Source: Stegostoma tigrinum (Eukaryota). From it: 64,000 bases of DNA. The stretch lies in contig NC_081379.1 of the NCBI RefSeq assembly GCF_030684315.1, positions 21,730,637-21,794,636 of the forward strand, in the 5' to 3' direction. The notes beneath the pieces were generated by a model that was given only the letters and a program-made list of their open reading frames with translations, was not told the origin of the DNA and did not search any database. Shown here in pieces: positions 5,101-49,620 of the stretch. Made by a program: the position numbers and the translations under genes. Numbering within the stretch: position 1 is the stretch's first letter; each line of letters starts with the position of its first letter.

Positions 5101-5708
5101 CCGAAGCGAAAAAATGCATTAAAACGCAAAAAGTCAATTTTAAAATTCATAAAGCTTAATGCATTCCAAAGTTGAAAATATATTTGCAGACAATGACGAT
5201 TATTTATTCCAGTTCGAAGTGTTTTTAAGATCCATTTATCCACAGGGTCGTTATCCTTTGGCTTCATGCCAAAGTCCAATAAATTCTTATATCCTATTTT
5301 GAACTAGTCCATTTCATTCTGTTTAAGTTGACATTAATTGAAATCTTTACTCAACAGACACTATCATGGGAACCTAGATATTAAGCTTGTCGCTTTTTGA
5401 CTGCTATGATAAATCTGTAATACAGAATCTATCATTTAAAGATCTGGGCTACTGATATCATTAGTCTTGTTTTTAAAAAAATATATCTCATGTTAGGCTG
5501 TTTGTGTTTCGGTTCTCCATCTTCAACCAAATGATACATAGTCACACCATCAACTTAAGTGACATTGTAGACCAAAGGTATTATCTGAGTTTTTGGTCAA
5601 TTAAAAGCACAATTGCAGAATCTTGCAGTTGTGTATAAATATTTGGCAAGTAAACCTCGCCATATAATTATTCTCCTTCAATTTCTTCAATAAGAGATCT
5701 TCACTTAC

Positions 5709-5743
5709 CTGTGAGATAGTGAGTACTAGCCCATTGAATGAAC
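5709..5743 (-). CDS. ABCB half-transporter coding exon 10 (35 nt, TM5): (G)SFNGLVLTISQ
   Basis: gtgttttttcag acceptor, CAG|gtaagt donor; phase 1 matches the previous exon; G.F.G pattern of TM5. Confidence 0.82.
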
Positions 5744-11700: not shown

Positions 11701-14700
11701 TTTTAAAAAACAAACCAGGAAGTAATGCAGACACAATGGGCTCATATTGAAACGAGAAGGAATTAGAAAAAAAAAGTTACGATTAGGCGTTTTCCAAGCT
11801 TGGATTTGACATACTTATAGGAGTATCAAAAAATTTTACATATGCTTTCAAATCGTGAAAAGTATTAAATGTTCTAAATGGTGCCAAAGTAACAACTCTG
11901 AGAAGATAAAGAATTACAGCACATCACTTAATTCACAATACTCCTCCATAAAATGGAAATTAACTAAGGTCTTCAAAAAGATTTCAATCATTTGATCATT
12001 TTACAATTTCTTTCTTAGAATACTATTAAAAGTCTATTAGTTTCTCCAGCCACAAAAGCTGGACAGACCAAATAAAAACTTGGGTATCTTAATAACCTCA
12101 AATATTTATTAATGCCCTCAAGTAGCAACACTTCTTCTCAAGGAACTGACTGAATGAACAGGAAATTGAGATAGAAATCAGAATAATTTTCAAGAGATGT
12201 TTACCCAGTACTGTGGGTGGAATAAGAATGTAGAATTCAGAAAATCCTACTGAATAATACCTTCCGCCAAAGCCAGCTTTTTTCCAATCAGATAGCTTTT
12301 ATCTATTCCTTTGTTGTACTGTTCTTCACATTTCTTTTCACTGCAGAAAGTCCTCACAGTACGAATGTTAGAGATGGTCTCCTCTGCCACTGCACCAACA
12401 GCTGCCAGTTCATCCTGAAATCTTTTTCGTAATCTCTTCACAAACTCCCCTGGAAAATCAAGATAAACCAACCTATGTTATCACCCTTTCAAAAATAATT
12501 TACTGAGCAGCCAATTTTATTCTATTGTTGAAATACATATTTTGAGAAATGGTGAAACATAACAGTGCAACATTTTTTAAATTCCCCTGCTTGGTCAAAT
12601 TACTTTATTCTAATCCACCAATAAGTTCACGATGACTAGAAGCACACAACAACGACATGCCACAAGTGAACTTAAATATTAATCCTGATTGCAAATTGAG
12701 CCTCAAAAGAACAAATGGAAGAAATAAATTCATACAAACTTCCATGGATGTTCTACAGTCATATCTTTGAACAAATTTGCATAGTAGCCCCTTGTAAAGT
12801 TCTATGGTTGGAAGCAGACAATGTCAAAGCAATCCCTGGGCAAATGCGATATTTATCACAATTTTTAAAACTGCAGACTGGCAGCTGACAAGTGGTCACT
12901 AATTGTCTAGTGTCAAAATAAAATTAAAACCAGCAAAACCATTCAAAATCACAGCACATAAGTCGACTGCACAAACCAACACATTATTTTGCGACATTTT
13001 TCACTCCATCATGGTGATTTCATGATGTTAGGAAGTACTGTAATTTATGTGAACAAATACACAATACTGGTTACTTTCCACATACCTTTCAGAATGTTCC
13101 AGAATCCTCAGCAGATTTTCTTTACAAGCTCCCAAATGTGGCATGCTTTCAATGAGCTTCCAAAATCCCATACCACCAGACGTAAATGCACAGGAATTGG
13201 ATTTTGTTCCCCATACAGAATGAGAATCCAACCTTAGTAGGAGCATGTATGAATTTTCACAGTATGTATTCCCAGTCTGGAAACAGGTGACAGGAAAATG
13301 ATGTGGGGCTCGGAAAGCAGCGCAAAATCAGGGATTTCTTTCAGGAAATCCAAGTGTGACTATTCTGCACAGAAATTTGCCTTCTCGCTCATATGTAAAT
13401 TTGGGCTCTAGTCTTTGTACTTTAAGTAGGATTAAGAGTCACTGGAAAAGGGTGGAAAAATGTTCCAGGGATGATAACTGAAAAAAACAAAATGAACACA
13501 CGTGGCTATTTTACCTGGGAAAAAAAAAGACAAGAAGTGGCCTGATAGAAGTCTTTGAAATGATTAAGGGGTTAATAAGTAAATTTTAGAGGTGCATCCA
13601 CTTGTTGGGGCTTCTAGGAAAGTAAGCCAGTAAAGGTTTTTAAGATTATTGGAGCTTTTCATATGGTAGAAGTAGAGATATAGTTTCAATTTTGGGTTAG
13701 AGAAACTAGAACCAGGTGGCTAAAAATAAAGTTGGTCACTGATAAATCTAAAAAACTTCAAAAAGGAATCTGTTTACCCAGGCAACAGCTAGAATGCAGA
13801 GCTCACAAGGTGTAGTTCTGGCAATTAACAGATGCCTTCTGGAGGAAGCCAGCTAAGCACATGGAAGGGGGCTCTAATATGCTGTATGAACACAGGCACA
13901 AATGTCTTGTACTGTAAATACTGTGTTTTTTTTTTATTATCCAAAATTGTAATGGCAGAGCAAGTAGCATTAACCTGCAGCTAGATCTATGAAGCAAAGT
14001 AATTCAAGTCAAGCAGTAATAATAAAGTTGAAGATGTAGGAGAAAAAAAAAATTTAACACAGGTTTTAAAGAAAACAAAAAGGAAAAAAGTACCTAAATA
14101 AAAATGATGGCAGCATAGCTGACCATTCCAATGTAAATGCGATTTAATAATGACAATTAACCTTCTCTAATAAACAAATTGCATGAGGCTGAAATTCAAC
14201 TCACCATATAGGACACCTCCAATTGCTACAACTGGGATAGAGGCGAGCAGCACTCCAGTCAATGCTGGGCTTACAACAAACATAAGAACTACAGAACCTA
14301 TTATTTGAAACGTGTATCGTAGCAACATGGACAGATTCACCTGCAAAAGAAAAATTATACAAAAACATGACTTCGCCGTCATCTTATAATTTACACCACT
14401 ATTTATAGAGCTTGGTTCAATTCTCATACAGTACAATACAGATGATAAACACTGCACAAAATAGGAATAGCTTTTTAAAAATAATAACGTCAAGATCAAA
14501 GTTAGACTTGTAAATCTTAACCTTACAGTGATCACACATCAGCTGATGCAGCAACAAAGATGTTGTCGCTAATATTCATAGATACACAGCATAAATTCTA
14601 CGTTGTTACTTCTGCATTACCTCCACTTCTGCTGAAAAAAGGACGTCAAATAACAAATTTTGCTGTTTGCTTCATAACAAACTTACGTTGGTGTTTGTTC

Positions 14701-17700
14701 TTATACTTACTGTTAAAGTGCTCTGAACGATCTGAGTATCAGAGGACAAGCGATTCGTCAATTCACCAGTTCTATTACAAGAAGTAATGTAATTAAACTT
14801 AAAAATTGAGAAAAATTGCACATTCAACCAAAATCAGATATTGTTGAGTTTACTTGCACGTCAAGTTGGACTTATTTAAATAAAACTAAATTTAAATAGA
14901 CTGCAAATACTAATACAAAATATAAGAAGGAAAAATCTGGATAAAAATGAAGAACTGAAGTTGTAGTATGTTTTCCTTTTGATTAGCATTATCACAGGAA
15001 TCTAAAACTCTTTTCAGAACTTTGGGGCACAAGTTAAAATGCTCAGTTTATTGTTCCTACACTAAAATATGGCACACATTAGAAAAGTATTACTTCAGAT
15101 GTGTTGATACAAAATAATTGTAAAAATTTTAAAACACAAACATATATTTTCTCTTGAGGGCAGAAAAGCTGATGTTTTGGGCCTAGACCCTTGTCAGCTT
15201 TCCTGCTCCTCTGATGCTGCTGGGCCTGCTGTGTTCATCCAGCTCTATACCTCGTTACCTCTGATTCTCCAGCATCTGCAGTTCCTATTATCTCTATATA
15301 TTTTCTATTTTCTGAGTTTGAGGCAGGGGAATACCAGAGTCAGGCCACCTGTACCTAGGTTTATGCCAGGTCCAGCCATTTCAGAGAGCACAGTTTTTGC
15401 TTGGTCCTCAACACTGCCATCATTTTCCCTTGCCTCTCAGAACTCGATACCCTTTTGAGATGAACTCGATACCCTTTTGAGATATACTCGCAAGCATCCA
15501 ACTGAAATCAACACCTGAAATATGTACATCGATACAACCAAAGCTAGGAGGAGAAGTGCACAGTACCATAGTCCCACAATTTCACTGGTCAGAACATTAA
15601 AAAATACCTTTTCCTAGTTACCAAGATGGCCTACCATAAACTTTATCTTTAATCAGGTTTTGAATAGGAAGACTTAGCAACCACATTTCTTTAATAATCT
15701 TAGTTATTGGTTTATTCTCAAATCAAAATTTATTCAATGAAAACTCAAGAACCAGCTTACATATACAGGCAGCAGTGCATGTACAAATATTAAAGTCTAA
15801 ATGTTTATGTCTCTAAATAATGTAAAATGCATAAGTAAAAAGTCACACAAAAGGAAGAGAAAAAATATAAATTTCTTTCTCTGCAGTTCTTTTTTTTTGT
15901 AAAATAGAGAAACATTTTCTGTTTATTCTTGGAGCCAAAAAGGATAAGGGGTTGAACTTTTCAAAGTCTGTCAGTGATGTTCTGCAAATATTGTCGCATC
16001 ACTAATCACAAATAGTAAATTGGAGTCTTGGCAGACACAGCTTACCCTGGAAATCTCCTACAATTAAATCACTCTCCATAAGGAACAAATAAATAGCATC
16101 CTAAACTCCAGAAAACGTTCCTTTCAGAAACAGGAGATCAACTCGGTAGCCCTTACTTGGCAGCTACTTGATCCTCATCTAGTTCCAGATATCAAAGTAC
16201 TCTCCACCAAGTCACTGTTCACAAAGCAAGCGATTCACAGGAAACACTATTTTAAAAAAGTTCAAAGTCTAGAGTGATCGTACAACACTTCTTTTAAGGA
16301 ACAAAAAAGGTATTTTTTTCAAAACACAAAATAAATTAATTTTTCCACAATCCTTAAATTTTTAGTCCTCCAAGAAATATCAAAAATGAAGCACAGATTG
16401 TCTTACCAACTACTGAATTAGCTTTTCAATTGTTGAACACATTTTTTTGAGGAAACAGTAGAAAGCAGAACTAATAGCACAGTGAAACTTGGATAAATAA
16501 TATGCTTAATGGAAATTCTTCTTGGGCTTAAAAATCTTGGGGTACTATTTCAGCTACATTACATTCAAAACAGTAACTCAATCCTCAAAATATTGAGAAA
16601 AGTATTGCTTATACTTAAAAAACACAATACTAAATGTACAAAAAGTACCAAGACTACCTAAGGAAAAATTTAAAAAAATCCGAAATAATCAAGAGGATTC
16701 TTGCAAGTACCAACTACACTACAATTTATTTCGTGCCACTTCACATACTCACTGTAAAAACATGACAACTAAAATAAGATAACAGTGTGGAGCTAGAGGA
16801 ACACAGCAGGACAGGCAGCAGAGGAGCAGGAAAGCTGGTGTTTTGAGTCAGGACCCTTCTTCAAAAATGGGGGAGGGGACGGGGTCTCTCAAATAAACTT
16901 GGGTGGGGAGCGGTGATAGCAGGGAGATAGTGGAGCGGATACAACAGGAGAGAAGACAGACTGGTCAAGGAGGTGGGGATGAAGCTAGTAAAAGGTGCGT
17001 GTAGTTGTGTTCCTGCTGTGTTCCTCCAGCTCCACACTGTGCTAGCTCAGACTCCAGCATCAGCAGTTCTTACTATCTTGATGACAACTAAAATGTTCTT
17101 ATGCTTCTACACATGTACATATTGTTACAGCTCTGTGATTTTCTGTAAATATTGAAGAGGAAAACTGAAAAGAAAACCTGATTATACAATTATAGGGGTA
17201 AATCAAAGACGAGTTCAAGAGGATAGGTTTATACTTTATGCAGAAAGTTTCTATTTTAATTGGAAATGGCTTATCTTGGTCTTGATGCATTGCTCTGTTG
17301 ACATTTTCAAAGTCATTTCAACTTCAAATAAACTTGCTTTCAAATCAAGAATACAATTAAAAATAAACAGCCTCCTGAGAGATTTAGATTAATTATTTAA
17401 ACTTAATATTACTAAAACGTTCTTAACCCACTTGCTAACATTGTACATCATGCATAAGTAAAAACTTCAATTAAGAAGCAATTATCGAGACAAATAAAAT
17501 GAATCATAGCAAACTTAGTAAGTTGATGATAAAATTCAACTGGCCTGCTGTCTCTAACAAGTATGCAATAGTTAGCAATAATGTAAACAGAGGTATGAAA
17601 GGAAAACAGTGAAACATAATTTTTTCTTGTAGTGAAGTAATACTATAGCCAATGAAATTTTTCACCCATTACTTGCAATCTACACTTCCTATACGGAGTA

Positions 17701-20700: not shown

Positions 20701-23700
20701 AGTCACCGGTGACCTAGAGAAAGCTTTGAACAAAGATTCAGATTTTGTGGAAGAAATCTCTCCTTTAACTGCCCAGAAAATTTGGTGCCAAATCCAGATG
20801 ATGTCTTGGCATCCATCAGCAATTATGTCATCAAGCAGGTAGGCATATGATCAATTTTGAAATATTCACACACAGCAAACTAGGAAATTAAAAACACTTG
20901 AAATCTTTCATGTTTAGACCAAATTAAGATAGCAAAATAAATGAGAGTACTAAGTAGTTGAATTAAAATATAGACTTTTATCTAGCTTTTTTTAAAAAAG
21001 ATGTGAACTTTTGTACTAACAGGGAAATTCAACATTCCACAATTCTAGGCCAGTGAGTGCCATTTGGTACCGATTACAAACTTACGCGACCATTAAAAAC
21101 TCAGTTACGTCTCATGCAACAATATGTAACAATTGGTACACTGAAACAAATTGCTTTATAACAGATGTTATCATCAATTAATGATTGCAATAGAGGTAAT
21201 CCGTGAGAACCTCTATGAAGCACCCAATAAAGGAGCGTAGATTAAATGGCAGCAACTTCTGGCTTCCATATTAGTTTGTACTTGTCTAAAATGATAAAAA
21301 GGTGATTGGCAGATTCAGAACAATAATATCAGCAAATGCTGGCATTGTCATTATTACCACAGCAAAATTTGGACCATGGATTTGAAGTTTCGTATTTCTC
21401 TACCGATACCCATTTTTTCATAAAGTTCTGCAATGTAGTTTTTCATGATGTAAGGAAGAATAAAATTAGAGAAACTATGAAACTAACACAATTCCCACGA
21501 TTAACCCACATTTTAGGATATTGGCAATTTTTTCTTGAATGGATAAATATTTCCATAGATGACTGGATCATTACAGGTCTATGATAAGATTGACATTAAA
21601 CATCATTAGTCTATCCCATTTAATACTATTTGTTGTCAAACAGTGCAGCCAATTTGATTTTCTTAAAAATGGGGGTTAAACACTTAAGCAACCAACTATA
21701 CTCTGTCAAAGTGAGATGCTAATCTCATGTTGATCAACTGGGAAATTGAATGATTTAGCACATTTATTTCAATAAGCAAATGCATACTTCCCTGTAACAT
21801 CATCTCACATCCTTACCTCTGATTAAAACTGTGCAGAACAACAAAATCAGTAAAATTTCTGTCAATAACTAAGGCACCACAGTAGAGATTCAAATTCTGA
21901 GCAGTATTGACTTTCAATCTCCTGAGGAGGCTTCCTGCCTGGCGTAAACTGAAACTGGGGAGAAGGATGGAGTTCTCTCCAGCAACTCATCCACAACTGA
22001 AAAGCTGAGTACAGGGGTTTAAAAAAGCTTAATTACAACAAAATGATGCACTTGGAATTCTTTTCTTCATGTTTACATTACATTCAATATTGACACTGAG
22101 CTCTGAAACTATGCAAAGGAACAAGCTCAATACTTCATAGGGGAGGTGATGGCCTGGCAGTATTATCACTGGAGTGTTAATCCAGAGGCCAGACAACCTG
22201 CTGGGGTCTCAGGTTGGAATCTTGCCATGACAGATGGTGGCATTTGAATTCAATAAATATCTGGAATTAAAAAAAATCTAATGATGACCGTGAATCTACT
22301 GTTGATTGTTGGGAGAAAAATATCCATCTGGTTCACTCACGTCCTTTAGGGAAGGAAACTACCATCCTTACCTGGTCTGGCCTACGTGACTCCCAGACCC
22401 ACAGCAACATGGGGAACTCTGAACTGCCCTTTGGCCAATTAGGATGAGCAATAAATTAGCCAATGATGCCCTTATCCCCTGAATGAATTTAAACAAAACT
22501 TCTAAGGAGGAAGTGCAATTCCCATTGAAATCCATCATCTTTTAATGCTACAACTTAATATCTATACAGCAAGTCTAAAATCTTTTTCACAAGTGTTGAC
22601 ATTTATAGCCTTCATTTAATCACAACTGCAAGGCTCATCATTCAGCAAGTCCATAGCACTCACCTGTTCTCATCAAAGAATGAAATTTCTTGCTTTAGAA
22701 TGCAAGCAAAAAGCCTTTTACGCAGTCTGGCTACCAGCCTGTGTCCCGCGAGAACAAAAAAGTAGGCACGGATAAATGAACAAGCAGCACCACCAATGTA
22801 TATACCAAAGAGGATAAGAATCATTCTGTCAAGATCCTCTGAAAGAAAAAAAACAAATCTTATAAAGTTAACTTTTACAAGCAGAATTTTAGATCGCCTT
22901 CACAGAACCACATATCACATTTTAAAATAAGACTTTTAAAAATTTTTAAAAACATTTCCAAACCATATTTTAGTTGTCATTTACCATTCCAAAAGGGTTA
23001 ATGCGAACCAGTGGTAACTAGATGTCATCAAAGCACCCACTGCAGCACCAAAATGATGAAGCTTCAATGTATAATGCTAATGCACATATGCCCAAAATTA
23101 TAACATCACAAATCCAGTCACGATTGATCTTTTACAGCTGATTTTAAATGTACATCACAGTTAGTTTCACATCTGCTTTCAGTTGTCCTAGGCAATTATA
23201 TTTATTTGCCGGCGTGGGCTGAATTTTTAATATCAGGTCTAGAAGCAAATGTTGGCTAAGATTTTGCAGATGGGCAGTTTGTAACTTTTTCTACTCATCC
23301 TTTAATTTGAAAATTGTTGCGCTACAAAATGCTAATAGTTCAAGCTGACAATATTGTGGTGGGTTCAATGTAGCCTTTGGAACCAACAATCCATCTCCTA
23401 TTATGCAAGTAAATCAAGTGATTAGGAAGTAAAATGGAACATTTGTGAACTGCAAAGGAATGTAATATAAAATTAAGCAAGTTCTGCTACAGGTGTCCAG
23501 GTGATCGGTGAAACAGCATCTGAAGTATTGGGTACCGTTTTGATTTCCTTATTTAAGAAAATGTACAATCTTAACATAAGTAGTTCAGATAAAATTCAGT
23601 TGACCAATTCCTAACAGGTATGGGTTCGTTTTGAGTAAAGTTTGGATAGGTTGAGCTTGTAGTATTCCGTTGGGATTTAGAACAATACAAAAGGTAATCT

Positions 23701-32700: not shown

Positions 32701-35700
32701 AACAAGAACAAGAGGGAAAGATAAATATTTCAATAAAAATAGCATGCTGATAAATAGACATTTAAAAAGGTATTCAAGCAATTTATCTCCTCCTCAATGC
32801 AGCATCTCAGAACAGACTGTTAGACTCAGATACTGTTACTTATTGCGAAGATTTCAACTGCAACAGATATGCGTTTCCATGAGATAGAGGTAAACACTGA
32901 GCAGAAAATGGAGGGTGCCCAGGGCAGGGTAAGCACTTGGAGACATTTTTGGAGATATTTTAAAGGCAGACTGGAACAGTGATTTTCAAAGAGTCGCGAG
33001 GACAGGCCTCAAGTAAATAACGATAGACTGGGTGTAATAAGAAATGATCAATCAGTCAAGGTACCTGGAGGTTATCCAAGAAGAGCTAGACAAGGCTTTA
33101 AAGAGATTTGGAAATAAAAAGATTGAAAGTTAAATTGCTATGACACAAGGACCAAGTGAATTTGAAAGAAGACATGTATGGCAAAGACAGGAATTACAAG
33201 TTCTAGACATTACATTTTTCTCAAGTAAAAGCTTTCAGAAGTGGACAAGGATATGCAAAAATACTAATCTATGAGCTGATGTGGGCAAGAGCAAAAGGAT
33301 TAATGATGGAAGCATTTAAAACAATGAAAGTTGAAGACTGCAATCTTCATAAGGCACCACAAACTCCTATTTCTTTAGTTCAGTTTTTCACTGTAATCAC
33401 GAACCAATTCCAATTGCATAAGGCTGGTTGCTATCCAACTAAAATAACAAACAAAATTGAATAAATTCACTTAAATAGATTTAAATACATATATACTTGG
33501 GGCGGGGGGGGGTGAATAATGGGCAGTCACTTTCAAGTCATCCAAATTATTTAATTTAGGTTACTAGGGAAACAAAAAAATTCAAACAAATTTCAGTCTC
33601 AGTTTAAATCCTACGCAGTTAGTTCACGAGCTTAGTTTCAAATGGGATAGCATCAATTGCAGTTTCTCACTAATTCAGATAACAAGAATTTTAAAATAGC
33701 TTAAAAAAGTTAATAGACCTAGCTTCAGGTAACCGGAAAAACAACTGCATTACAGTGGGGGCCTTTGCAGCAGAGAGATTTTGACAGCATATCACTCAAA
33801 TAACAGCACAACATTCCTGTTTCTTCTGAAAGTTAAGTGATGTTGAAATTGATTATTGAAAAAGTAGTCAGCTAATTATTTTTAAATTAATTCCAAGGCT
33901 CAATTGCAAAAGAATCTACCAAAAGACTAGTACAAATCTCCTCAGTCACAGAGTTCAAAATATAAAAAAAATCTTAGACACTTCAAGGCAGGAAATATCA
34001 TTATGTACTCAAGCCACTTTGGTAAAAGCACAAACATGTTTCATTCCTCAGATCACTACAAATTATAAATAGATCAATTATGTGAATTGCTCAAACACAA
34101 AGCAGTAGCTTCAGTTCCTGGATCAAGGGCACAGTTTGACAATGAATTCAAACCTGTCACAAATATTATTTCCAAGATGATTTGGTTGTTTAATGCATTT
34201 TGAAAACAGCATCAATGCACCCCCTGGTGGGATAAAATTGTATGTTACACTTTATTCCAGGAACACTGGAACACGGTAACATTTTTGTTCCAATTTTGCC
34301 TTGTTCAAAAATCAGCAACATCTTTATCAGAGTCCTTCATGTTATATTTAACTAAATTATCTTAATTGCAGATTCCAGAATTATTTCCATAAAGACAGCA
34401 GTGTTTAACTAAGTAGGAAAATGATTCACATACCCATTGATTCCATAGCAATATCAATGACCTTGCCAAAGAAAAATGGAGCCACTATCTGTGAAAGACA
34501 GGAGAAAACTAGTGCCAGCATCCCACCAACACAAATCAGTATTTCCTATTGAATAGAAAAAAATATTTTAAATGTCAATATGATGTATATGTGACAATTT
34601 CTACCCGTAAAGCAACATTTTACTTAAGATTTCCAATATTGTGGATAGTTGTCTGTAGCCATGAGCTGTAGACAGAAAAAATGTTGAACTATTTAGGTAA
34701 TTTAGTAATGGAAAGCTCTAAATGGGCAACAAGTCATTTAGGATCGAAATTGCCCCCAATATTTTAGGGGAACATCTGAAGGCAGCCAAAATTGGAGTCA
34801 TGATATTTGGCTGGCTAAAACTTGAATTGGCATGAAAAAGATGTATCTGCCCTCTCTCATTCACTGAGCTATCCTGAAACATTTTGTCATAAGTCGGTCT
34901 ACACACACTGTACCTTGGGCAGAATCTCCCAGCCCAGGGGGCACAGGCCTGGACATATGAAAGCAACTTAATTACAGGAGGTAACAGTGGACCAAAATCC
35001 TGACATTCTCCTGCCTCCACAAGAAATAAGTTCTGGGTGAAACGATCCATGCTCAAGTTTCCTATCCTGCCACTAATTTAAAGACATTGAGTCATTAATT
35101 GGGGACCACTTAAGGATCTGCTCCCATCTCAGCTGCAATAATCACAGGCAGGACTAAATAATGGCCGGCCCACTAGAATGGTTAACTAGTCCAGGCTACC
35201 TGCTCGTTAGGAGTAGTGCATCTATCAGTTGTAATGTGCGCAAGATTCAGGGCATGGAGACAGGACAAGGCAATTTCTGCTGAAAGTCACCTCTGTTCCT
35301 GCTTCTATCACCACAGAATCCCACTGCCCACAAGCCCCTACCACAGAATATTCCACTCCCACAAGTCATTTACACCTTAACCCTTGGTCCTTGTGATCCT
35401 GGAAGCCTATTTGGCGTTCACATCTTCCACGGTACCACTGAGTGCAAGAAATGACCCTTGATGATTGGTCGGCAGCCCTTGATGTTCAGGACCTCCTCCG
35501 TGACTATTTCAACTCTAGGAACTTGATTTCAGATGAAGGCCCGTGGGTGCTTTCCAAACAGTCTGATTGGAAGATGATATACCATGCCTTTCTCTGAAGG
35601 TCCGGGGGCATATCTCACTACGTTTCAGTGTGCATGCAAGACACCCAGGGAAAATGGAAGATTTTGCCCCTTCAGTGGAATGGACGCATGAAGGTTACAT

Positions 35701-38700
35701 ATGGCACAGTTCAAAAACTGGCTTCTGATTACCAACCCTTCAGTTGTTTGGTTTTGCACTGACAGTCGAGGTCAAATTATGAAAATCATTGATTTGCCAA
35801 AAATCACATGCTCAATCCACTTTTCTGCACACGTTTCTGATTAGCACTGTGCCCATTTTAAACGTGTGTTTTAACTAAAATTACACCCTGCAATGTTCTT
35901 CAATTCTAGCTGATTAAATTCAATTTTAAGTAGATATTAAAAACCAAACGTGAGCATCCATATAGCCAATTCCTGATTTTCTGTAGTTAATTATATTTTT
36001 GCACAATATTTAGTCAGAATTCTATTAAGTAACATCATTTTGTTTATTTTTATAGCTGGAATTTCAACTGTAGTATATTAAATAAATACAAGTGGAAGCA
36101 GAGGACCTGGCATTTGAAATTACTGTAATATACCTAAGAAAGTTTGAAGGCTGGTACAGTGTAAACTGTAAATTTTTGCTGTGGTTCTCCTCATATCTTC
36201 AACAGAAGATCTATGGAAACTCTGGTAAAATACTTAATCATTGCTTACATGGATATTCTATGGGACTTCTATTTTGGTCAAAGCCGACAAATCGTAGGAA
36301 ATTCGTTCTCTTGACATTTTAAGGACAATTATTATAGTCAAGTGAATAATTACTGTTCAGAAATCAGGATTTACATTGCCTATCTTACAAAGTCCTAATG
36401 CATGGGGAACACTGCATGCTGAACACAGCAAGAGTAAAAATGATTTGGTGTAGAAGTCATACCTATCAAATCACACTCTTAAAATATAGTCTGAACTTTT
36501 TCCTTAGAAAAAAAGATGAAGTTAGAAGTTCCTTGAAGTCTGCTAATCAAGAACTATAGAAGTGCATTATCTTTTAACTGCAGGACTCCTCTAACATGTG
36601 CTCCACCAATGCAAATTGGCTTTAATGCGACTGATAAAATAGGGTAATGCTATTTCCAAAACATGAACTTGTATTGACTATAACATGATTCCATTAGTGA
36701 CAATGTTGTTTTGGAAGTAGTTTTTAGAAAGTATTGTAGGGAAAAAAAAATGGATTTCAAGATTCTCTTCTTCTTGGATAATGCACCAAACCATCCTCCC
36801 ACCATTGGTGAGCTTTCTGAAAACATCAAGAGGTTGTTTCTACCCTCAAACACAACCTCCCTCCGTCAACCCATGGACTAGGGTGCAACAGCAATTTTCA
36901 AAGCTTATTATTTAAGGCACACACTTAAGAGGCGGATTGCAGCCACTGAGGATTAGGACAGTGTTCTTCAGTTTTTGGAAGAACTTTGACATCAAGAATG
37001 GAATTGACATTATGGTCGAGGCCTGGAGTGATGTCAGTAAGGATAGCTTGCAAGCAGTTTGGTGGAAGCTTCTCCCAGATTTTTTTCAAGATTTGAAAAC
37101 CTTTGATTTGTCACAGGAGCCCCCAAGAATCAAAGACAATTGCGTTGATCTTGCAAAGCAAGCTGGATTCGAAGAAGTGGAGAGTGAGGATGTTGAAAAG
37201 CTGCTCGAGTCCCACCTCCCTGCAGCTGATCTATAACAACTTGTCCCACAGAGGGGGAAAGTGAAAGCTGGGCATGAATTTGAAGTAGAGGATGCAGCAT
37301 GACAAGGGCTTTCCATTTCTGTTTTGTCTTCCACCCTGAAGGAAATTGAGAAGCAGTTTCAGCTTTCAGAGGACAATGATTACCATGCAGAATACAGAAG
37401 GGTGGCAGTTTGTGGAATAAAATCTTATTTGGCACCCTATGAACAGCTTCTTTATGGAAGAAGGAAAAAGGGAAAAACAGCAGACACTGGATGTCTTTTT
37501 TAAGCCAACCCCGAAAAAAACAGAAGATAATGAATGACAGCCATCCACTTTTGGATGAATTTTTTTTTGCCGTAACCGTGCAACATCAACCATACCTGAA
37601 GGAGACGATGATGATGACCCTCAGCTCCTGCATTAACAACAGGCCAACTTCAAAACCTCTGCCCTCATCAAGTCATATTTACATTTTTTTTCAAGATAGG
37701 TGTTAAGTTTACTTTTATTTCATTAACAGAAATTAAACAAACATTTATTCAAACTGTGCTGTCCTTTGTGTTAGACTTTTGAGTGATCTTTGAGCTTTTT
37801 TTTGGTGGGTCTGCCCCAACCCCACTTTTCCTGTAGGCTCTTATTTCTATAGCATGATTTTTGCTAAATCAACATTCCACAGGGATGTAACTATTGCATG
37901 ATAGCAGAATCCCCTGTACCGCAGATAAGAATTAGGAATACATATCAGATATATAACCTTGAATAAATTCCAGTCCTTATTTGTGAAATTGTCATTGATA
38001 ATACATTAACATAAATAATACTCACATCTTTAGCCAAAGAAAAGAGACGCTTAAGATCAGCTTTATTTTTTTTCTCCCTCTCTTCTTCAATGCTGTGTAC
38101 AATACGAAAGATCTGAAGTCTTCTTAGAAACCTGAGGCAGGAAGTATTAATCTTGTAATGCGCCAGCAATACGAAGGGACTGTAACAACACCTAAATATT
38201 AATACTAAAGTCACAAACAGCTTTAAATCAATCGCAATTAGGAAATATGCATTGTTAACTTGTAACTCTACAAGTTAAACTCTAATTCTTCCTAATTTCT
38301 CTCCTTCGACACAAAGACAAATAAGATAGATACTAAGGGTGGAAATACGAAGAGGAATCGGGGAAATACACAGTTTAATAGTGCTAATCTGGACCATAAG
38401 AGCTTAAGAGTCGTTTCTTTTGGTTCCTTCCAAATCCTTTTAATTCTTTGCTGTTGACACAAGATTGTTTACACCCTGACGCTCTCTTTTATTGACTGGT
38501 TGAGAATTTATTCTTCCACTTGTCTTTGAAAGCGTTTCAGTATCCTTCGACAGGGGATTTGTAGAGAATGATGAGTGCAATACAGCCGTTACTGGAGACT
38601 TTCTGTTATTTCCTTGGAAGAGAGAAACTAGATTTTTTGATTCTCTCTCTCTCTGCAGGCTACAACAGCCACACACAAGCATTATGACTTGGTCAGGAGC

Positions 38701-41700
38701 CAGTTAAAATGCTACTGTCAACAAAATTATTCCCCTTTAATTTGGGAACCGTTGTCTCCATGGTGTCTGCTTTTGCTCCCACTGTTCCAGGGCGAAGCAC
38801 CATTTTACACAACTCATAGCCATGCTTAAGTAAACAGGATACTTAAAACTGCTGAGGGGCAACGTTTTCACTCAGGAAGTGGAATTAACTGCCAAAGGAG
38901 CAGATACAGGCATAATTGCAACATTTAAAATACATGTATCCATGTGAATGTGAAGGATTGAGAGGGATACAGACCAAACACAGGCAAGTGGGATTAGTTT
39001 AGTCTGGTAAAAACTCAGACGAGTTGGACCAAAGGGTCTGTTTCTGTGCTCCATGATTCTATGCTAAAATCTCATGAAGTCTTCTTTCTCCACCCCACCC
39101 TCCCATTTTTAGACCACACAAATAATGAAACTATGATAAGCTCTTATGGTCTTTATACAAGTGCGTCAACAGCATTGCACTCATCAACGCTGTTAGTGTT
39201 ACAAATAATTACACTATGTTAATTAACTGCTTAAGTTATTTTAAGCATGACTGGAACAGACAAAGTGTCAAAGGTAGTGACCATGAAACTGCTGAACTGC
39301 TTTTACAAATTTAACCAGTTTAGCAGTGCTGTTTAGGGAAGGAAATCTACCTGGTCTGAGCTTTACGTGGCCCACAGTAACCTGGTTGACTCTGTTCTGT
39401 TTTCTCAATATTCTCAAATGCAATTAGGAATAGAAAATTAGCGACAGCCTTGTCAGCATGTGGAGACATTAGGAACAAATAATAACACTAGTTTCTTTTG
39501 ATCACTTTGCTTGTTTTTACTGCCATTAAACAATTGCGAAACTTAGCATGTATTCTGACGATGCCAAAGTGCTCAAATTATTGAGTGAAAAATTGAACTG
39601 GTAAATGTTGCAACAGATAACAAAATAGACTTTAATAACATGGAATTATTGAAAACATGCTTAAAAAGGGTTATCAACAATATCATTGCCATTAGTGTAG
39701 TCAAATTTCAATCTATGCATACTTTCTCCTTCATTGTTGCTCATTTTTAACTCAGTGTAATTTGACTAAACAACAATCCATTACCTGTTGCAAAAAATAC
39801 AAAAGGGGAACTCAATCAGGCTGAAGACCAGGGTAGAAATACAAACAATCTTGAAAGTTAGGTGCATCTGTCAATGGAAAAGAAAGTTTGTTATACAAAT
39901 CAGGTTTAAGTAATCACAGACAGACAATTAAGTGTATTTAAACTTCATCCAGAAACAGTGGTAACCATGATTTATTTAAAGCACAATAACGTTTTGCCTG
40001 GTAACAGTGATAGAACTATACAGAGAGAGTGGAGAACACAGCCTATCATTTTTATCTTGGCAAACAAATCAATTTTTTGCAGGAAGAAAATATACAATGA
40101 TGCTGGGATTTCTAGATGAATGCTCTAGTAAGAAAAAAGTAGGCTCTCGAAGCACATGATCCTTTAATCAAGGGACTGCATGAAGCAAAGAACCTACTAA
40201 CCTGAATCTGACTCTTCTATATTACAAGCCCCTTGTTGCGTTGCTTAAATGAACAGATTTCACAGTGTGAAATATTTAAATTAATACATACAAGAAGCCC
40301 AAGTCAAACATTCCTTAGCCAGAAAATGTTATCAGAGATAATGGGAATTTCAGATGCTGGAGAATCCAAGATAACAAAGTGTGTAGCTGGATGAACACAG
40401 CAGGCCAGGCAGCATCTCAGGAGCACAAAACCGTTTCGGGCCTAGACCCTTCAGCAGAGAGGGGGCTGGGGAGAGGGTTCTGAAATAAATAGGGAGAGAG
40501 GGGGAGGCGGACCGACGATGGATAGAGGAGAAGATAGGTGGAGAGGAGAGTATAGGTGGGGATGGGGATAAGTCAGTTCGGGGAGGACGGACAGGTCAAG
40601 GAGGCGGGATGAGGTTGTCAGGTGGGAAATGGAGGTGCGAGGTGAGAGGAAGAACAGGTTAGGGAGGCGGGTCAAGCTGGGCTGATTTTGTGATGCAGTG
40701 GGGTGGGGGGGGGGGGTGAGGGGATGAGCTTGGCGGGTTCAATGTGGACTTCACAAGCTTCAAAATCTCCCCCTCACACACTGCTTCCCAAAACCAGCCC
40801 AGCTCGTCCCTGCCTCCCTAACCTGTTCTTCCACCCACCTATCCCCTCCTTCCACCTCAAGCCGCACCTCCATTTCCCACCTACCAACCTCATCCTGCCT
40901 GCTTGACCTGTGTGCCCTCCCCACCTATACTCTCCTCTATCCATCTTCAGTCCGCCTCCCCCTCTCTCCCCAGAGGATTTTATGTTGGTTTGTCAAAGGA
41001 GATTAATACTGGAAAGATTTTTCAAACTACAATAATATTGAGTTTTAATCCACGAATTGCTGCAGGGAAACTGCAGACCCTGTGTACGTTATCCATTAAA
41101 TGAAAAAAAGAACGAAGGAACTTCTGGGCTTTTAGTTGAAATGATGAGAAGTATTTTACTTCTGTTGAACACATGTAAGGTGCACTTAAAATCTATACAT
41201 TGTTAAGATCAAGCAAATTACCAATATGACAAATGTTTCATTTTATTTTACACCTTATAATTTATGGGCAAAAAAGTGACAACCATTCAAATCGATGCTG
41301 ATTTTTTAAAAATGCATGGATGGGGAGCTGGGTCAATTCCTTCTTCACCATGGAAGCTATTGGGATAATAACAGAAAATGCTGAAGAAGCTCAGTAGACC
41401 TGGCAGAATCTGTGGAGATTCTGACATTCAAATCTGATATGGAATCTCTTCAGTAAGTGGAACAAAGAGTGACTTTTCATTCTTACATTTTCTTTCATTC
41501 ATCAATTAACGTGTTCTTGCTCACAATTGCCTAAAATACACAGCACTGTATGTCAAGCAGTTAAACAATGAACTTTGAACCTGCACCCAGCAGTTGCAAT
41601 CAGACAAAATTTAACAAATTAACATTAATAAACAAGGAATACTTACCTCATTATAACTCTGCGTTATCAGAATTGTAATTCCTTTGGCCACAGTATATGC

Positions 41701-44127
41701 AACCCAGAGTCCAGAGATTAAAAAGCTAATCAGGTGCAACAGCTCTCTTTTCCTTTTAAGGTTAGAATTATTAAGATCATCAATCTGCTTAAGGGCAATG
41801 GACTCCATTGTCAGGAAAATAACAATAAGAATGCAGGTTTTCATTGTGCAAAATACTGCAAGGTCAAAGGTTGATCGCCAAAAGCACCACTTAAGTACAT
41901 CATTTTCCAAGTAGTGAGATCGACCACCTACAAAACAAGAACTTTAATTAATAAAAAAAAGTAACAAAATAACGTGTAGAGAAATGAACTGAAGCCAATG
42001 CCACGAAAACAACAAATAGTTAAAACAACACAAATTCTAATAAAAAAATAAGGCATCTCTTCTTTTCAAATATAAATCACAGCTGTAACTTTTACATCTG
42101 TCTGCTCAGGTTCTCGTGAAACTCGAGTTGTACTAATGTACTGTTAGCATTCCTGAACATTACCTAAAATTAATAACAGCTGTTTTAACCCCCTCAGTTT
42201 TATACTTAAGCCTAATGAAAAACATTTCCCATTTTTGCTAAAAGGAACATTCAAAAAGTAAATTAGTTTTAACACAAAAGTGTTACATTTTGGGCAAGAC
42301 ATCTGGTATGTGTGACTTTTCTCCATTAAAATTATGGCACATTTTCCAGGTGAACTAACAACTTCTCACATTCACAACTTTTGTCACTTAAAAACAGTCA
42401 TGAAGCTTCTCAATTTCCCTTTCCCGCATAATTTTCTCCTCTTTTGCCATCTTGTGCTGTGCCAAGGTTCCACTAGAGACACTGTCCTCAATCTCAGTGC
42501 CCAAGTGGCTAATCACCATGTGAGCTGTCATCATTAAGCATGTAAAGGAGACTTGTATATAGCTCATCTTTGCCATTTCAGGTTTAATACTCATCTTACT
42601 GTAAACAGCAAAGATTTCAATAACCTTACTGTTACAGAACCATACTGAAAACTCAAATGGGAAATGTTCAAATGTTACATTCTGGGGGAAGGGTAAAAGC
42701 AACAGCAACCTATGTTATATGGCATCTCCAATGTAATGAAATATCCTAACCACTTCACAGGTGTGTCATAAAATTAAATATAAAACAGCCACAAAAGCAA
42801 ATATTACATCAGGTGACCAAAATCTTGATCAAAAAGGTAGATTTTAACGAGTGTTTTAAAGGGGGAAAATGAGGTCAAGGCGCAGGGAAGTGCAAGGAGG
42901 GTATTGCAGAGCTTGGAACCTAGGCAATTGAAGGTTAGGTCATCAATGACTGAGAAATTAAAATTGGGATTCCACAAGAGGCCGGAATGAAGGAGTGCAA
43001 AGTAGGGATTAGAAAAAAATGCTGGCCTCGCCAAGGATGCCTACATCCCATGAATCAACAATACATTCTGGAGAATTGCGAAGCTGGAAGAGGTTATAGA
43101 GGGAGAGAGGGGCAAGGCAATGGAGACATGAAAACAAGGATCAGAATTTTAAAATGAAATATCTTACTTGACCATGAAACAGCACAGGTCTACAAGCATA
43201 AAAGTAATAGCAGAAGGGCACTTATTGTGAGTTCAGATACAGCAAAGTTTTGAATAACTTCACATTTGCAGAGGGTAGAATGTGGAAGACCAACCAGGAG
43301 CAAAATGCGATAGTCACTCCCACAGGTAACATCGTCACAAATGAGGGTTTCAATAGCAAAAGAAAAGTCAAAAATCAAATTGTCACAGAGGTGGATAAAG
43401 GCTACATGATGGCACCTCTGAGGTTTAAAGTTCATTTCAGGATCAAATATCAGCAAAATCAGTATCGTCAAACACTTGTTGAAATCAATGCTCTCCTGCT
43501 CTGCGCTAGGTGGTACTATGAGTAAGTAAGAACACAAGACATCAAATCCAACCGTATTAATCAGGCACGATCAATAGCTGTATTGGTTTATCATCCCCAC
43601 AAGCTCAGAAAGGATCTTGTCTTTGACAGCTGGTGAAGCCATCAATTTTAATTGTTTAGTATCCATAGATTTTTCTCACCCTAACAAGGAATATCTCAAA
43701 ATCCCAAGAAACTTACGACCACTTTGAAACTTTAGTTAATTTAATTATAATCAAAGTTTTTTTACAGAAGGTTAAATTCCTTACCAACTTACTCAAACAA
43801 TAAAGCAAAACAGCAAAACACTTGAAAATACTACATTTTTCATGAGGAGTCAATTTTTTTGCAAAATTTTGTAGCATACAGTTAAAAATATACAAATGTT
43901 ACTTATTCATAACACAACACTAAATGTGCATTGGGTCAGTTGGAACATTGGAAAATTGATCCTGAAATTAATTACTTCATACTGTTAATTACAAAGACAA
44001 AGACAGCTACATTACCTAAAATCCAAAGTATAATTGTAGATATTCCATCCACGAACAGAATAACATTAACAAGAGGGATGAATCTAACTGCTGGCAGTCT
44101 GTAATAATAAATACTGTCTTGTGCCAT
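5709..44127 (-). CDS. Spliced gene (5' part, 10 coding exons, 430 aa in window) for an ABC transporter subfamily B half-transporter: TAPL/ABCB9-like TMD0 plus ABC_membrane TM1-5; 3' exons (TM6, NBD) outside the window
   Basis: join of 44127-44016, 41927-41647, 39867-39785, 38131-38026, 34545-34434, 22838-22664, 14771-14711, 14340-14205, 12449-12261, 5743-5709. All GT-AG, phases 1,0,2,0,1,2,0,1,1 match, 1290 nt open. Contains ABCB motifs [50 protein letters not shown] and AEETISNIRTVRTF. Confidence 0.93.
5975..6800 (-). mobile_element. CR1-type LINE fragments (older body with a younger 3' tail at ~6143-6290)
   Basis: catagaacattacagcacagtacagg tail; ORF 6466..6714 carries KSKEVMLNMYKT..R-like CR1 residues. 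Confidence 0.7.
6880..7230 (+). mobile_element. tRNA-derived SINE
   Basis: B-box-like gggtttgaattccacc, then body ggaaggaaatctg..gtccttacct shared with 22139-22495 and 39300-39480. Confidence 0.75.
8125..9330 (-). mobile_element. Degenerate LINE (CR1/L2 group) 3' portion
   Basis: Reverse of the family seen at 55400-56785 (CTIYKMHCSN-like, LTWNYI-like, tail gggcaataaatactggc). Confidence 0.7.
10020..11330 (-). mobile_element. Old degenerate Penelope element (pLTR plus GIY-YIG remnant) interrupted by a younger CR1
   Basis: pLTR-like start (aaaatacaggaaatactcag...gttgatgacctttcatt); 10310-10540 resembles the GIY-YIG 3' region of 51270-51500; appears to resume after 11088. Confidence 0.55.
10548..11087 (+). 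mobile_element. Relatively young CR1-type LINE 3' end (ORF2 C-terminus plus 3'UTR)
   Basis: QFWAPHLRKDILALERVQQRFTRMIPGM...LGLYSL..RRLRGNLIETYKI...TRGHSLRI; ends in short tandem tail tatgtcttatggtctta. Confidence 0.92.
12261..12449 (-). CDS. ABCB half-transporter coding exon 9 (ICL2): EFVKRLRKRFQDELAAVGAVAEETISNIRTVRTFCSEKKCEEQYNKGIDKSYLIGKKLALAE(G)
   Basis: gattttccag acceptor, G|gtatta donor; AEE.ISNIRTVR.F coupling-helix motif; ORF 12247..12471. Confidence 0.95.
13430..13930 (+). mobile_element. Degenerate CR1 3' fragments
   Basis: gttccagggatg...ctgatagaagtctttgaaatgattaagggg...actagaacc; CR1 ORF2 C-terminal signature. Confidence 0.55.
14205..14340 (-). CDS. ABCB half-transporter coding exon 8 (TM3-TM4): VNLSMLLRYTFQIIGSVVLMFVVSPALTGVLLASIPVVAIGGVLY(G)
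   Basis: ttttcttttgcag acceptor, G|gtgagt donor; within ORF 14167..14535. Confidence 0.95.
14711..14771 (-). CDS. ABCB half-transporter coding exon 7: [20 protein letters not shown]
   Basis: cttcttgtaatag acceptor, ACA|gtaagt donor, 61 nt; conserved TGEL.NRL.SDT motif. Confidence 0.95.
15153..15295. mobile_element. Short inverted Penelope pLTR insertion with ~11-bp TSD ATATATTTTCT
   Basis: aaagctgatgttttgggcctagaccc followed by gtcagctttcctgctcc...gcagttcctattatctct; TSD at 15142-52 and 15296-306. Confidence 0.75.
15440..15483. repeat. Perfect 22-bp tandem duplication (GAACTCGATACCCTTTTGAGAT)x2
   Basis: Read directly. Confidence 0.95.
16776..17080. mobile_element. Fold-back Penelope pLTR insertion with 14-bp TSD ATGACAACTAAAAT
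   Basis: TSD at 16762-75 and 17081-94; acagtgtggagct...acacagcagga is mirrored by tcctgctgtgttcctccagctccacactgt. Confidence 0.85.
18955..19290 (-). mobile_element. LINE 3' tail fragment (same family as 8125-9330), inserted in an old CR1
   Basis: gctggctgggccagcatttatt...gggagggagttccagga...gggaacttgcaggtg. Confidence 0.65.
22139..22495 (+). mobile_element. tRNA-derived SINE (near full length)
   Basis: A-box tggcctggcagt, B-box ggttggaatc, same body, tail ...caataaat...gcccttatcccctgaatgaat; 5' fragments also at 9375-9525 (-) and 61088-61235 (+). Confidence 0.8.
22664..22838 (-). CDS. ABCB half-transporter coding exon 6 (TM2/ICL1): [58 protein letters not shown](R)
   Basis: ttttctttcag acceptor, CAG|gtgagt donor, 175 nt; classic RLR..LF..IL.QE..FFD motif. 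Confidence 0.95.
23380..24060 (+). mobile_element. Degenerate CR1-type LINE 3' end
   Basis: tgaagtattgggtaccgttttgatttccttatttaagaaa...gagaccagaattagggg; typical CR1 3'UTR. Confidence 0.65.
27715..28753 (+). mobile_element. Solo LTR (1039 bp) with 5-bp TSD GTTTT
   Basis: TG...CA ends with short inverted termini TGTAGGGGTGA / TAACTCCTACA; GTTTT at 27710-14 and 28754-58; TATAAAA ~28570; AATAAA 28677-82. Confidence 0.85.
29520..30100 (+). mobile_element. L2-type LINE 3' end
   Basis: ctcattcatgcttttg...tccaacatagtcttggctgg...caaactctgctgccc (LIHAF..S..D.SN..LAG..QNSAA of L2 ORF2). Confidence 0.7.
30308..31945 (-). mobile_element. CR1-type LINE, 1.6-kb 3' portion
   Basis: Tail aagaaataggaacaagtgtaggccattcagcc; ORF 31546..31971 NKEMAEKL..YFA.VF..ED...LKAAKSP.PDG...W.TVNV..LF (CR1 ORF2). 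Confidence 0.88.
34434..34545 (-). CDS. ABCB half-transporter coding exon 5 (core TM1): [37 protein letters not shown]
   Basis: ttttctattcaatag acceptor, G|gtatgt donor; P-x-F-F-G-K-V-I-D motif. Confidence 0.92.
34917..35669. mobile_element. Putative non-autonomous DNA transposon (PIF/Harbinger-like) with ~14-bp imperfect TIRs and 3-bp TSD CTT
   Basis: GGGCAGAATCTCCC ... GGAAGATTTTGCCC; CTT flanks both ends; no ORF. Confidence 0.55.
36581..37916 (+). mobile_element. Tigger/pogo (TcMar) DNA transposon deletion derivative with broken DDE transposase
   Basis: KILFFLDNAPNHP...FLPSNTTSL.QPMD*G...FKAYYLR...FWKNFDIKNGIDIMVEAWSDV...W.KLLPDF with stops and frameshifts; right TIR atagcagaatcccctg followed by TA. 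Confidence 0.9.
38026..38131 (-). CDS. ABCB half-transporter coding exon 4 (charged linker/elbow helix): FLRRLQIFRIVHSIEEEREKKNKADLKRLFSLAKD
   Basis: cttcctgcctcag acceptor, GAT|gtgagt donor; RLFSLAK elbow motif typical of ABCB half-transporters. Confidence 0.88.
38860..39065 (+). mobile_element. CR1 3'UTR fragment
   Basis: caacgttttcactcagg...ttggaccaaagggtctgtttctgtgct tail. Confidence 0.65.
39785..39867 (-). CDS. ABCB half-transporter coding exon 3 (TMD0 helix 4): MHLTFKIVCISTLVFSLIEFPFCIFCN(R)
   Basis: ctttcttttccattgacag acceptor, CAG|gtaa donor, 83 nt; phase 0 to 2 exactly bridges the neighbouring exons. Confidence 0.85.
40334..40970. mobile_element. Penelope 3' end/pLTR on the minus strand (40334-~40737) fused to an inverted partial copy on the plus strand (~40738-40970)
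   Basis: Same sequence as 50812-51170 and 61780-62130; ggggaggcggacc...ggtggg is mirrored by cccacc...gtccgcctcccc. Confidence 0.88.
41647..41927 (-). CDS. ABCB half-transporter coding exon 2 (TMD0 helices 2-3): GRSHYLENDVLKWCFWRSTFDLAVFCTMKTCIL...ITQSYNE
   Basis: tcttgttttgtag acceptor, GAG|gtaagt donor, 281 nt open; overlaps ORF 41611..41910. Confidence 0.9.
42700..43480 (-). mobile_element. L2-type LINE 3' end with a small inserted LINE/SINE tail (~43010-43060)
   Basis: Reverse of the L2 tail (aaggtagattttaacgagtgttttaaaggg); ORF 43190..43537 has DY..LLLVGLP..L..IQNFA. Confidence 0.7.
44016..44127 (-). CDS. ABCB half-transporter coding exon 1 (exon 2 spans 44016-44173 with 5'UTR): MAQDSIYYYRLPAVRFIPLVNVILFVDGISTIILWIL(G)
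   Basis: Acceptor ttgttttag at 44174-75; in-frame TAA at 44143-45 upstream of ATG (AGAATGG context); donor G|gtaat; phase 1 matches next exon; hydrophobic TM helix containing Asp. Confidence 0.85.
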
Positions 44128-48657: not shown

Positions 48658-48860
48658 CTGTCCTCACTTGCCAGCTCCTCTCTCTCCGTTTCGACCGCTT
48701 TATTACTATTTTTTTCTAATTTTTGTTACGGTATCAAGCACACAGCACTAAACAGCGCCACTCCCGCAATCACCAGACACCAAGGCACGGTTGCAGTTAC
48801 AATGGCGACAGTTCGACCTCAAACCAGCTGCGCCCCACAAACCAACGGCTCAGGCAGAGA
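48658..48860 (-). other. Probable non-coding first exon (5'UTR) of the ABCB gene; TSS not defined
   Basis: CpG-enriched segment ending in CAG|gtaaag donor (GT at 48657-56), immediately downstream of GC boxes; no long ORF on the minus strand. Confidence 0.6.
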
Positions 48861-48915
48861 GGAGCATTTGGAATCCCCGCCCCCGGCACGCGCACGGGGG
48901 AAGGGGGCGGGGTCT
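48700..48915 (-). promoter_or_regulatory. Small CpG-rich promoter with two opposed Sp1/KLF GC boxes (CCCCGCCCCC 48875-84; GGGGGCGGGG 48903-12) flanking an NRF1-like GCACGCGCAC
   Basis: The clearest non-TE CpG cluster in the window, 4.7 kb upstream of the first coding exon; motifs read directly. Confidence 0.65.
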
Positions 48916-48917
48916 TC

Positions 48918-49620
48918 TATGGAGGTAGAGCCTGAGGGGTCGTGGTCCAAGGTGGAGGAGGAGATTGAGGTGGAGTGATCTCTGGAGGAGGAGCCAGAGA
49001 GTGTGTGGTCACAGATGAAGGAGGAGTTTGAGGTGAATTGATCTCAGATGGAGGAGGGTGAGGTGCAGTGTCCTCATGTTGAGGTGGGGCCTAAGGAGGT
49101 GTGGGCCAAGGTAGAGGAGGAGCATGAGGTGGAGTGATCTCAAATGGAGGAGGAGCCAGAAGGTGTGTGGTCTTAGATGGAAGAGGAGCTTGAGGTGGAG
49201 TGATCTCAGATGGGGGAGTGTGGGGTGTAGTGATCTCAGGTTGAAGTGGGGCCTGAGGGTAATGTCTCAAGTGAAGGAGGATCCCTAGGTGGAGGAAGAA
49301 TCTGATGTGGAGTGATCTCAGATGGAGGCAGAGCCTGAGGTGAAGAGTCTCAGATGCAGGAGTTGAGGGGGAGGGGTCACAGACAGAGGAAGACCCTAAG
49401 GTGGAGGAGGAGCCTGAAGAGGAGGTGAAGCCTGAGGAGTAAGAGAATTGGATTGGCGGGTTTGGAGAAGGACCCTCAGATGTAGAAGCTGTAGGTAGTA
49501 ACGAGGAGCTGCAGGTAAAGGAGACAGCCCAATTGGAGGATGAAGGGCCTCAGGACGACAGGATGTAAGTGAAATAGGAGGATCCTCAGGTAGTGGAGGT
49601 GGAACTGCAGGTAGAGGGGC
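48918..49620. repeat. Degenerate GA-rich minisatellite (~32-33 bp monomer GAGGTGGAGTGATCTCAGATGGAGGAGGAGCCT) with a ~159-bp higher-order repeat
   Basis: Recurrent gaggtggagtgatctcagatgg; CAAGGT.GAGGAGGAG at 48948 and 49107 starts two aligned ~159-bp blocks. Confidence 0.85.

Follow-up and report, generated by a model that had tools for sequence, protein, structure and literature searches.

An AbcB1-type ABCB half-transporter gene in the zebra shark with a MENTAL-homologous TMD0

Gene structure within the window

The window, by which we mean the whole 64,000-nucleotide stretch of zebra shark (Stegostoma tigrinum) DNA analyzed here, carries an ABCB gene on its minus strand: ten exons, running from 44127 down to 5709, join into 1290 nt that encode 430 aa without a stop. 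AG is found at all nine internal acceptors and GT at all ten donors. An earlier note, made from the letters alone, had described a clean 10-exon, 430-aa reading frame, and this is borne out by 100% identity (430/430 aa) to RefSeq XP_048412649.1, a protein of 771 aa with the RefSeq name “ABC transporter B family member 1-like”; the five motifs quoted in that note were all found, letter for letter, on the minus strand.

Exon 1 (44016..44127, a 100% match to RefSeq) opens with the ATG at 44127 and encodes residues 1–37, including TM1 of an amino-terminal TMD0 with Asp27; an acceptor at 44173 lies 46 nt upstream of this exon. The short loop helix, the S-x-F-D motif, TM2 (with Lys67) and TM3 (with Lys119) are all encoded by exon 2 (41647..41927, residues 38–131), TM4 of the TMD0 by exon 3 (39785..39867), and a charged linker and the elbow helix by exon 4 (38026..38131). 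The transporter core then follows in exon 5 (34434..34545; core TM1), exon 6 (22664..22838; core TM2 and ICL1), exon 7 (14711..14771; ICL1), exon 8 (14205..14340; core TM3–TM4), exon 9 (12261..12449; ICL2, the coupling helix and the beginning of TM5) and exon 10 (5709..5743; TM5), after which the gene runs on past window position 1. The 4-helix TMD0 and ABCB core recognized earlier are thus both in place: four hydrophobic helices precede the core, and the AlphaFold model agrees. Only the TMD0 and the part of the core from TM1 into the beginning of TM5 are covered by the window; when full-length shark proteins were run by tblastn against positions 1–5700, no additional exon came up, so that the remainder of TM5, TM6 and the nucleotide-binding domain (NBD) must lie beyond the window end. 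An alternative acceptor at 38191 would also preserve the frame (450 aa), but it was rejected because the aligned orthologues do not use it.

Support for the junctions comes from the RefSeq model and from the orthologues, since no gaps are needed to align the 430-aa join with the proteins of other sharks, rays and the chimaera (84–97% identity). A search of sequencing runs listed none of RNA, but four of unstated kind from a single study. A full-length skate-type member (802 aa) lies on a 3417-base Logan contig, which suggests a spliced transcript in a relative. Two RefSeq models depart from this pattern: a Chiloscyllium isoform in which exon 9 (ICL2) is missing in frame, and a whale-shark model without the signature and Walker B region. 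Both are probably non-functional splice forms or annotation artefacts.

Upstream of the coding exons, the CpG-enriched segment at 48658..48930 (minus strand), which contains a GC box and is followed after 48658 by a strong donor, is likely to be the promoter and non-coding first exon of the ABCB gene; the CpG observed/expected ratio reaches 0.85 at 48401–48800, compared with 0.27 for the whole window. Degenerate purine-rich repeats (48920–49640) lie immediately upstream of it. The window also contains repeat copies with a GIY-YIG-like frame (40350–41000, 50860–52000 and 61375–62440), which we take to be probable remnants of Penelope-like retroelements, and, in the introns and upstream of the gene, LINE reverse-transcriptase-like end fragments (10516–10938, 30519–30734 and 44694–45323), which to our eye resemble the reverse transcriptase ends of CR1/L2-type elements.

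Family membership, range and descent

By similarity, the zebra-shark gene is a member of a separate AbcB1-type lineage of ABCB half-transporters. With the white-shark orthologue as the phmmer query, the lamprey protein scored 1057 bits, those of the choanoflagellate Salpingoeca and a sponge 718 and 711, and Dictyostelium AbcB1 644, as against 485 for mouse ABCB9, 483 for human ABCB10, 439 for ABCB8 and 356 for TAP2. The same order held over a 336-aa TMD stretch, where members of the family scored 464 (lamprey), 356 (choanoflagellate), 307 (AbcB1) and 277 bits (sponge) and the paralogues 197 (ABCB10), 186 (ABCB9), 142 (TAP2), 122 (ABCB8) and 107 (TAP1). These scores uphold the earlier view that the gene is none of TAP1, TAP2, ABCB9, ABCB8 and ABCB10 and that its similarity to Dictyostelium AbcB1 exceeds that to either ABCB9 or ABCB10. 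The best NCBIfam model for the family protein was the TAP-family model TIGR00958, which the zebra-shark protein matched at 620.9 bits, under the 874.6-bit cut-off; the lamprey, Dictyostelium and Salpingoeca members likewise fell below it. In all four queries the core TMD was slightly nearer to mitochondrial ABCB10 (197–201 bits) than to ABCB9, and an ESM Atlas search with the full-length protein did not separate the ABCB paralogues.

ABCB10 has a mitochondrial presequence and no TMD0. This combination, the hallmark of ABCB10 and ABCB8, is not what we find in the shark gene, where four helices precede the core; moreover, TM1 of the TMD0 begins by residue 11–16 and so leaves no room for a presequence, in agreement with what the earlier note had said (here judged from sequence alone). 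Pfam places one ABC_membrane domain (PF00664) and one NBD (PF00005) on the shark orthologues, the NBD being read from RefSeq, outside the window, and the NBD motifs (Walker A, signature, Walker B/D-loop and H-loop) are canonical in 106–109 of 110 family members.

A search with residues 1–500 of a catshark orthologue gave 436 matches among 8000 scored candidates, of which the best 120 were examined. These came from cartilaginous fish, lamprey (58%), amphioxus, a hemichordate, echinoderms, molluscs, a brachiopod, a nemertean, a bryozoan, a priapulid, a scorpion, rotifers, cnidarians, Trichoplax, sponges and choanoflagellates; other members of the family are Dictyostelium AbcB1 and its relatives, Creolimax, the apusomonad Thecamonas and Ceratiomyxa. 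None of the best 120 of the 436 matches is named as coming from a bony vertebrate, a hagfish, a tunicate, an insect or a nematode (about 30 of the 120 carry no species name, and none of those exceeds 59% identity). The absence from mammals proposed earlier agrees with these best 120 matches and would extend to the other bony vertebrates, but to describe the lineage as kept in cartilaginous fish was too narrow, as lampreys and most marine invertebrate phyla retain the gene. From this absence we infer that the gene was apparently lost in the ancestor of bony vertebrates.

In a tree of 41 members, the branching of Amoebozoa, choanoflagellates, sponges, cnidarians, protostomes and deuterostomes follows that of the species in rough outline, and lamprey and chondrichthyans are joined at an SH-aLRT of 100; the tree comes from a quick IQ-TREE run without an outgroup, has SH-aLRT as its only support measure and leaves 9 of its 38 inner branches open. 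The pattern fits vertical descent of an AbcB1-type family since before animals, and the lineage is indeed ancient, as had been supposed, since it reaches Amoebozoa and an apusomonad. One nemertean protein, Lineus longissimus XP_064639028, combines a family-type TMD0 (135 bits) with a strongly diverged ABC core (121 bits, compared with 277–464 for the main family members); it may be a fast-evolving paralogue or a faulty model.

Dictyostelium AbcB1 (Q54BU4), the source of the RefSeq name, belongs to the family both by score (644 bits) and by tree; its TMD0 is long and diverged (1.4 bits with the MENTAL HMM, see below), and no account of its function was found in the literature searched, which largely omits subscription journals. 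Ren et al. (2015; PMC4458048) list in lamprey ABCB8, ABCB9, ABCB10 and an “ABCB10-like” gene (KM232926), a name derived from BLAST for a protein that was “not well resolved” in the published tree. We identify this protein as the orthologue of the shark gene (54% identity over 430 aa), and its start and 790-aa length, as given there, are the same as those of the family's lamprey members; the available text holds no analysis of the TMD0, the range of the family or its function. According to the same source, expression peaks in gill, kidney and muscle (17–24 RPM) and is 0 RPM in neutrophils and monocytes, where ABCB9 stands at 0 and 0.4, so a zero in immune cells does not set the gene apart from ABCB9.

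The link to MHC-based immunity that had been suggested for the gene finds no support: the lineage is older than animals, and lamprey carries, as a gene of its own, a true ABCB9, which is treated in the literature as the TAP progenitor (PMC5937356). With a family far older than the MHC and lamprey ABCB9 as the accepted progenitor of TAP, the immune angle is weak; the gene probably codes for an endolysosomal pump and would not be an immune gene, and the family has little to say on the origin of MHC immunity itself. Any bearing on the origin of TAP and TAPL would come only via the TMD0, a domain that the earlier note had left unanalysed.

The TMD0, the MENTAL domain and ABCB9

The AlphaFold model of the TMD0 (residues 6–167, pLDDT 88) consists of four long helices, with a further, short one in the loop that joins TM1 to TM2. 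Its charged and motif positions are strongly conserved across 110 members: D27 is Asp or Glu in 98, S56 is kept in 107, F58 in 102, D59 is Asp or Glu in 109, K67 is Lys or Arg in 101 and K119 is Lys or Arg in all 110. A profile of this TMD0, searched against 1.84 billion proteins, gave 162 matches, five of which are MENTAL+START proteins (E 5e-5 to 1e-4), one of them a coral protein named STARD3-like. The Pfam MENTAL model (PF10457) in turn matched 15 of 20 family TMD0s at E ≤ 0.5 (best 1.5e-5); it had no match to the zebra-shark TMD0, and its cut-off was passed by four of 16 full-length members, the shark proteins not being among them. HHalign aligned the TMD0 with MENTAL over 119 columns and all four helices (probability 97.8, E 1e-12; at most 0.76 for 20 column-shuffled control profiles), and a MENTAL HMM gave at least 15 bits in the TMD0 of 85 of the 110 members, with core scores never above 2.6 bits, although the STARD3 proteins in both of these tests were those picked by the TMD0 profile, so that the tests are not independent of the profile search. 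Taken together, these profile comparisons show the family TMD0 to be homologous, at the level of sequence, to the STARD3 MENTAL domain.

Structural comparison was less specific. Foldseek with the TMD0 model gave no match at E ≤ 0.001, and the best fold-search match was a designed helical bundle (Z 12.6, in the usual range for generic four-helix bundles). The STARD3 AlphaFold model has the same helix order as the TMD0, but the pLDDT of its MENTAL part is only 39–57. ESM Atlas leads for the TMD0 alone reached at most 0.83, several of them to clusters with a minority of TMD0_ABC/MTABC_N members, and homodimer prediction for the TMD0 was uninformative (score 0.01). A TMD0/MENTAL-like four-helix domain was also seen fused to a RhoGEF in Pigoraptor chileana and the choanoflagellate Craspedida sp., which may represent, in two unicellular holozoans, a third architecture besides START and ABC.

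The link to ABCB9 is fainter. In the TMD0 profile, D17, D49 and R57 of mouse ABCB9 align with shark D27, D59 and K67 (E 3.1, one of four matches, the other three being unrelated), and with a broader MENTAL/TMD0 profile built without any ABCB9 the ABCB9 TMD0 was the sole match among 177,635 PDB sequences (E 0.079); both matches fall below database significance. The TMD0s of TAP1 and TAP2 did not match either profile at E ≤ 10, and no ABCB9 or TAP was identified among the best 150 of the 162 TMD0-profile matches (47 scanned with Pfam, ten checked by name). In 2019 Graab and colleagues reportedly described a role of TAPL D17 and R57 in targeting. The TMD0 of TAPL, as far as the available text describes it, was found by NMR to have four helices and a loop helix between TM1 and TM2, its structure being unsolved as of that paper (PMC6199259). 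The shark TMD0 has the intramembrane Asp in TM1 and the loop helix that are the hallmark of TAP-family TMD0s, even with such weak ABCB9 statistics, and it seems likely that the family TMD0 matches the targeting domain of lysosomal ABCB9.

We put forward, tentatively and at a little under even odds, a broader proposal: ABCB9/TAPL would have a MENTAL domain as its TMD0, and so, by descent, would TAP1 and TAP2, whose TMD0s dock tapasin. In the same proposal, the present family would be the slow-evolving ancestral “MENTAL-ABC” link, in which a sterol-binding, endolysosome-targeting module was joined to an ABC pump before animals arose; lampreys and cartilaginous fish would have retained it, and all bony vertebrates would have lost it. 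Neither a MENTAL-ABC link nor a description of the family was found in the literature searched, most subscription journals being outside that search. What was already known is the RefSeq-annotated shark gene and the lamprey copy published as ABCB10-like; what is new here is the MENTAL identity of the family TMD0 and the bridge to ABCB9. The gene adds to the vertebrate inventory an ABCB paralogue that mammal-centred lists miss and databases label ABCB1-like or ABCB10-like, and it bridges two domains that have been studied apart, the lysosome-targeting TMD0 of TAPL and the cholesterol-binding, late-endosome-anchoring MENTAL domain of STARD3, so that the origin and mechanism of the TMD0 become experimentally testable.

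Proposed function and comparison with known systems

Our main reading, to which we give a probability of about 0.6, is that this AbcB1/“ABCB10-like” member with its MENTAL-homologous TMD0 is a homodimeric endolysosomal pump whose substrate, taken from the cytosolic side, is more likely amphipathic or lipid-like than a peptide. Since the NBD motifs are canonical, two half-transporters would pair, on the model of ABCB9 and ABCB10, as a homodimer with two intact and active ATP sites. The TMD0 would target this homodimer to late endosomes or lysosomes, because the MENTAL domain and the TMD0 of ABCB9 are both endolysosomal anchors: STARD3 is tethered to endosome membranes by its MENTAL domain, which also binds cholesterol (PMC5430228), and the TMD0 directs TAPL to lysosomes (PMC6199259, PMC9532399). 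A scan of the tails of 12 members turned up no conserved lysosomal sorting motif, and the literature searched yielded no localisation or transport data for any member of the family. The type IV fold would make the pump an exporter, with ATP driving a substrate from the cytosol or the cytosolic leaflet toward the lumen.

TAPL binds peptides via Y405, Q298 and E456, flops phosphatidylserine and, in one assay, did not translocate cholesterol (PMC9532399). By alignment end-points and by eye on lamprey ABCB9, the shark equivalents of Q298, Y405 and E456 are V311, E418 (variable in the family) and G474; the position of E456 is Ala in 91 of 110 members, and F449 is likewise not conserved. With these anchors replaced the cavity would be less polar, a condition better suited to a lipid-like or amphipathic substrate, and our guess at the substrate class is some 40% for lipid or amphipathic compounds, 30% for peptides and 30% for metal chelates or small organic anions. 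Of the “endolysosomal peptide-transporter” suggested earlier, then, the location gains some indirect backing from the MENTAL/ABCB9-type TMD0, and the peptide transport gains none, as the anchors are not conserved and the TIGR00958 score falls short.

Peptides are central to a less likely alternative, in which the same ancient lineage is a TAPL-like lysosomal peptide importer, redundant with ABCB9 and hence lost in bony vertebrates. The TMD0 in common with ABCB9, the place of TIGR00958 as best NCBIfam model and the way in which redundancy would account for the loss all favour it, as does ATP-dependent peptide import into plant vacuoles, reported in PMC5937356; yet TIGR00958 gives 621 against a cut-off of 875, Y405, E456, Q298 and F449 of TAPL are not conserved, and lamprey keeps the gene beside ABCB9 with a different expression pattern. 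A further reading, also unlikely, makes the family the animal counterpart of ALS1/ABCB27 of the plant tonoplast: a detoxification pump of vacuoles or lysosomes, kept in marine lineages, with metal chelates or organic anions as its substrates. Automatic annotation has given several invertebrate members the name “ABC transporter B family member 25/27-like”, and the CDD model “AtABCB27-like” presumably covers such family proteins. Plant ABCB27/ALS1 gives aluminium tolerance (PMC4886425), and the reported maxima of the lamprey gene in gill, kidney and muscle (17–24 RPM) would suit such a role; automatic names are best-hit labels only, however, and none of the ten name-checked TMD0-search matches was a plant protein.

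That the gene is instead a divergent duplicate of ABCB10 or ABCB9 that arose within chordates is largely refuted, and we consider it highly improbable. ABCB10 is the best vertebrate match to the core TMD, and the lamprey gene took its name from it by BLAST (PMC4458048); against this, proteins of an amoeba, a choanoflagellate and a sponge are far closer than ABCB9 or ABCB10, the gene tree extends to Amoebozoa and an apusomonad, there is no presequence, and lamprey ABCB9 and ABCB10 are, by the same account, separate genes.

The endolysosomal pump that we favour thus has several partial likenesses among known systems. To plant ABCB27/ALS1 it is likened only by the automatic names of some invertebrate members, and to mitochondrial ABCB10 by the core TMD, for which ABCB10 is the best vertebrate match while being a separate gene in lamprey. 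With ABCB9/TAPL it has in common the half-transporter form, the four-helix TMD0, a loop helix that follows TM1, and charged residues at corresponding positions; ABCB9 is nonetheless a distinct paralogue, present alongside the family gene in lamprey and scoring below the amoeba homologues. STARD3 and STARD3NL share with the family TMD0, through MENTAL (PF10457), the four helices, the TM1 Asp, the S-x-F-D motif, the TM2 Arg/Lys, the TM3 Lys and the TM4 Glu. The comparison shows no FFAT-like motif in the 40 family members scanned, and animal members of the family, unlike STARD3, have some 20 aa inserted on the cytosolic side between TM2 and TM3; MENTAL is fused to START in STARD3, whereas in the shark family the TMD0 is fused to an ABC core.
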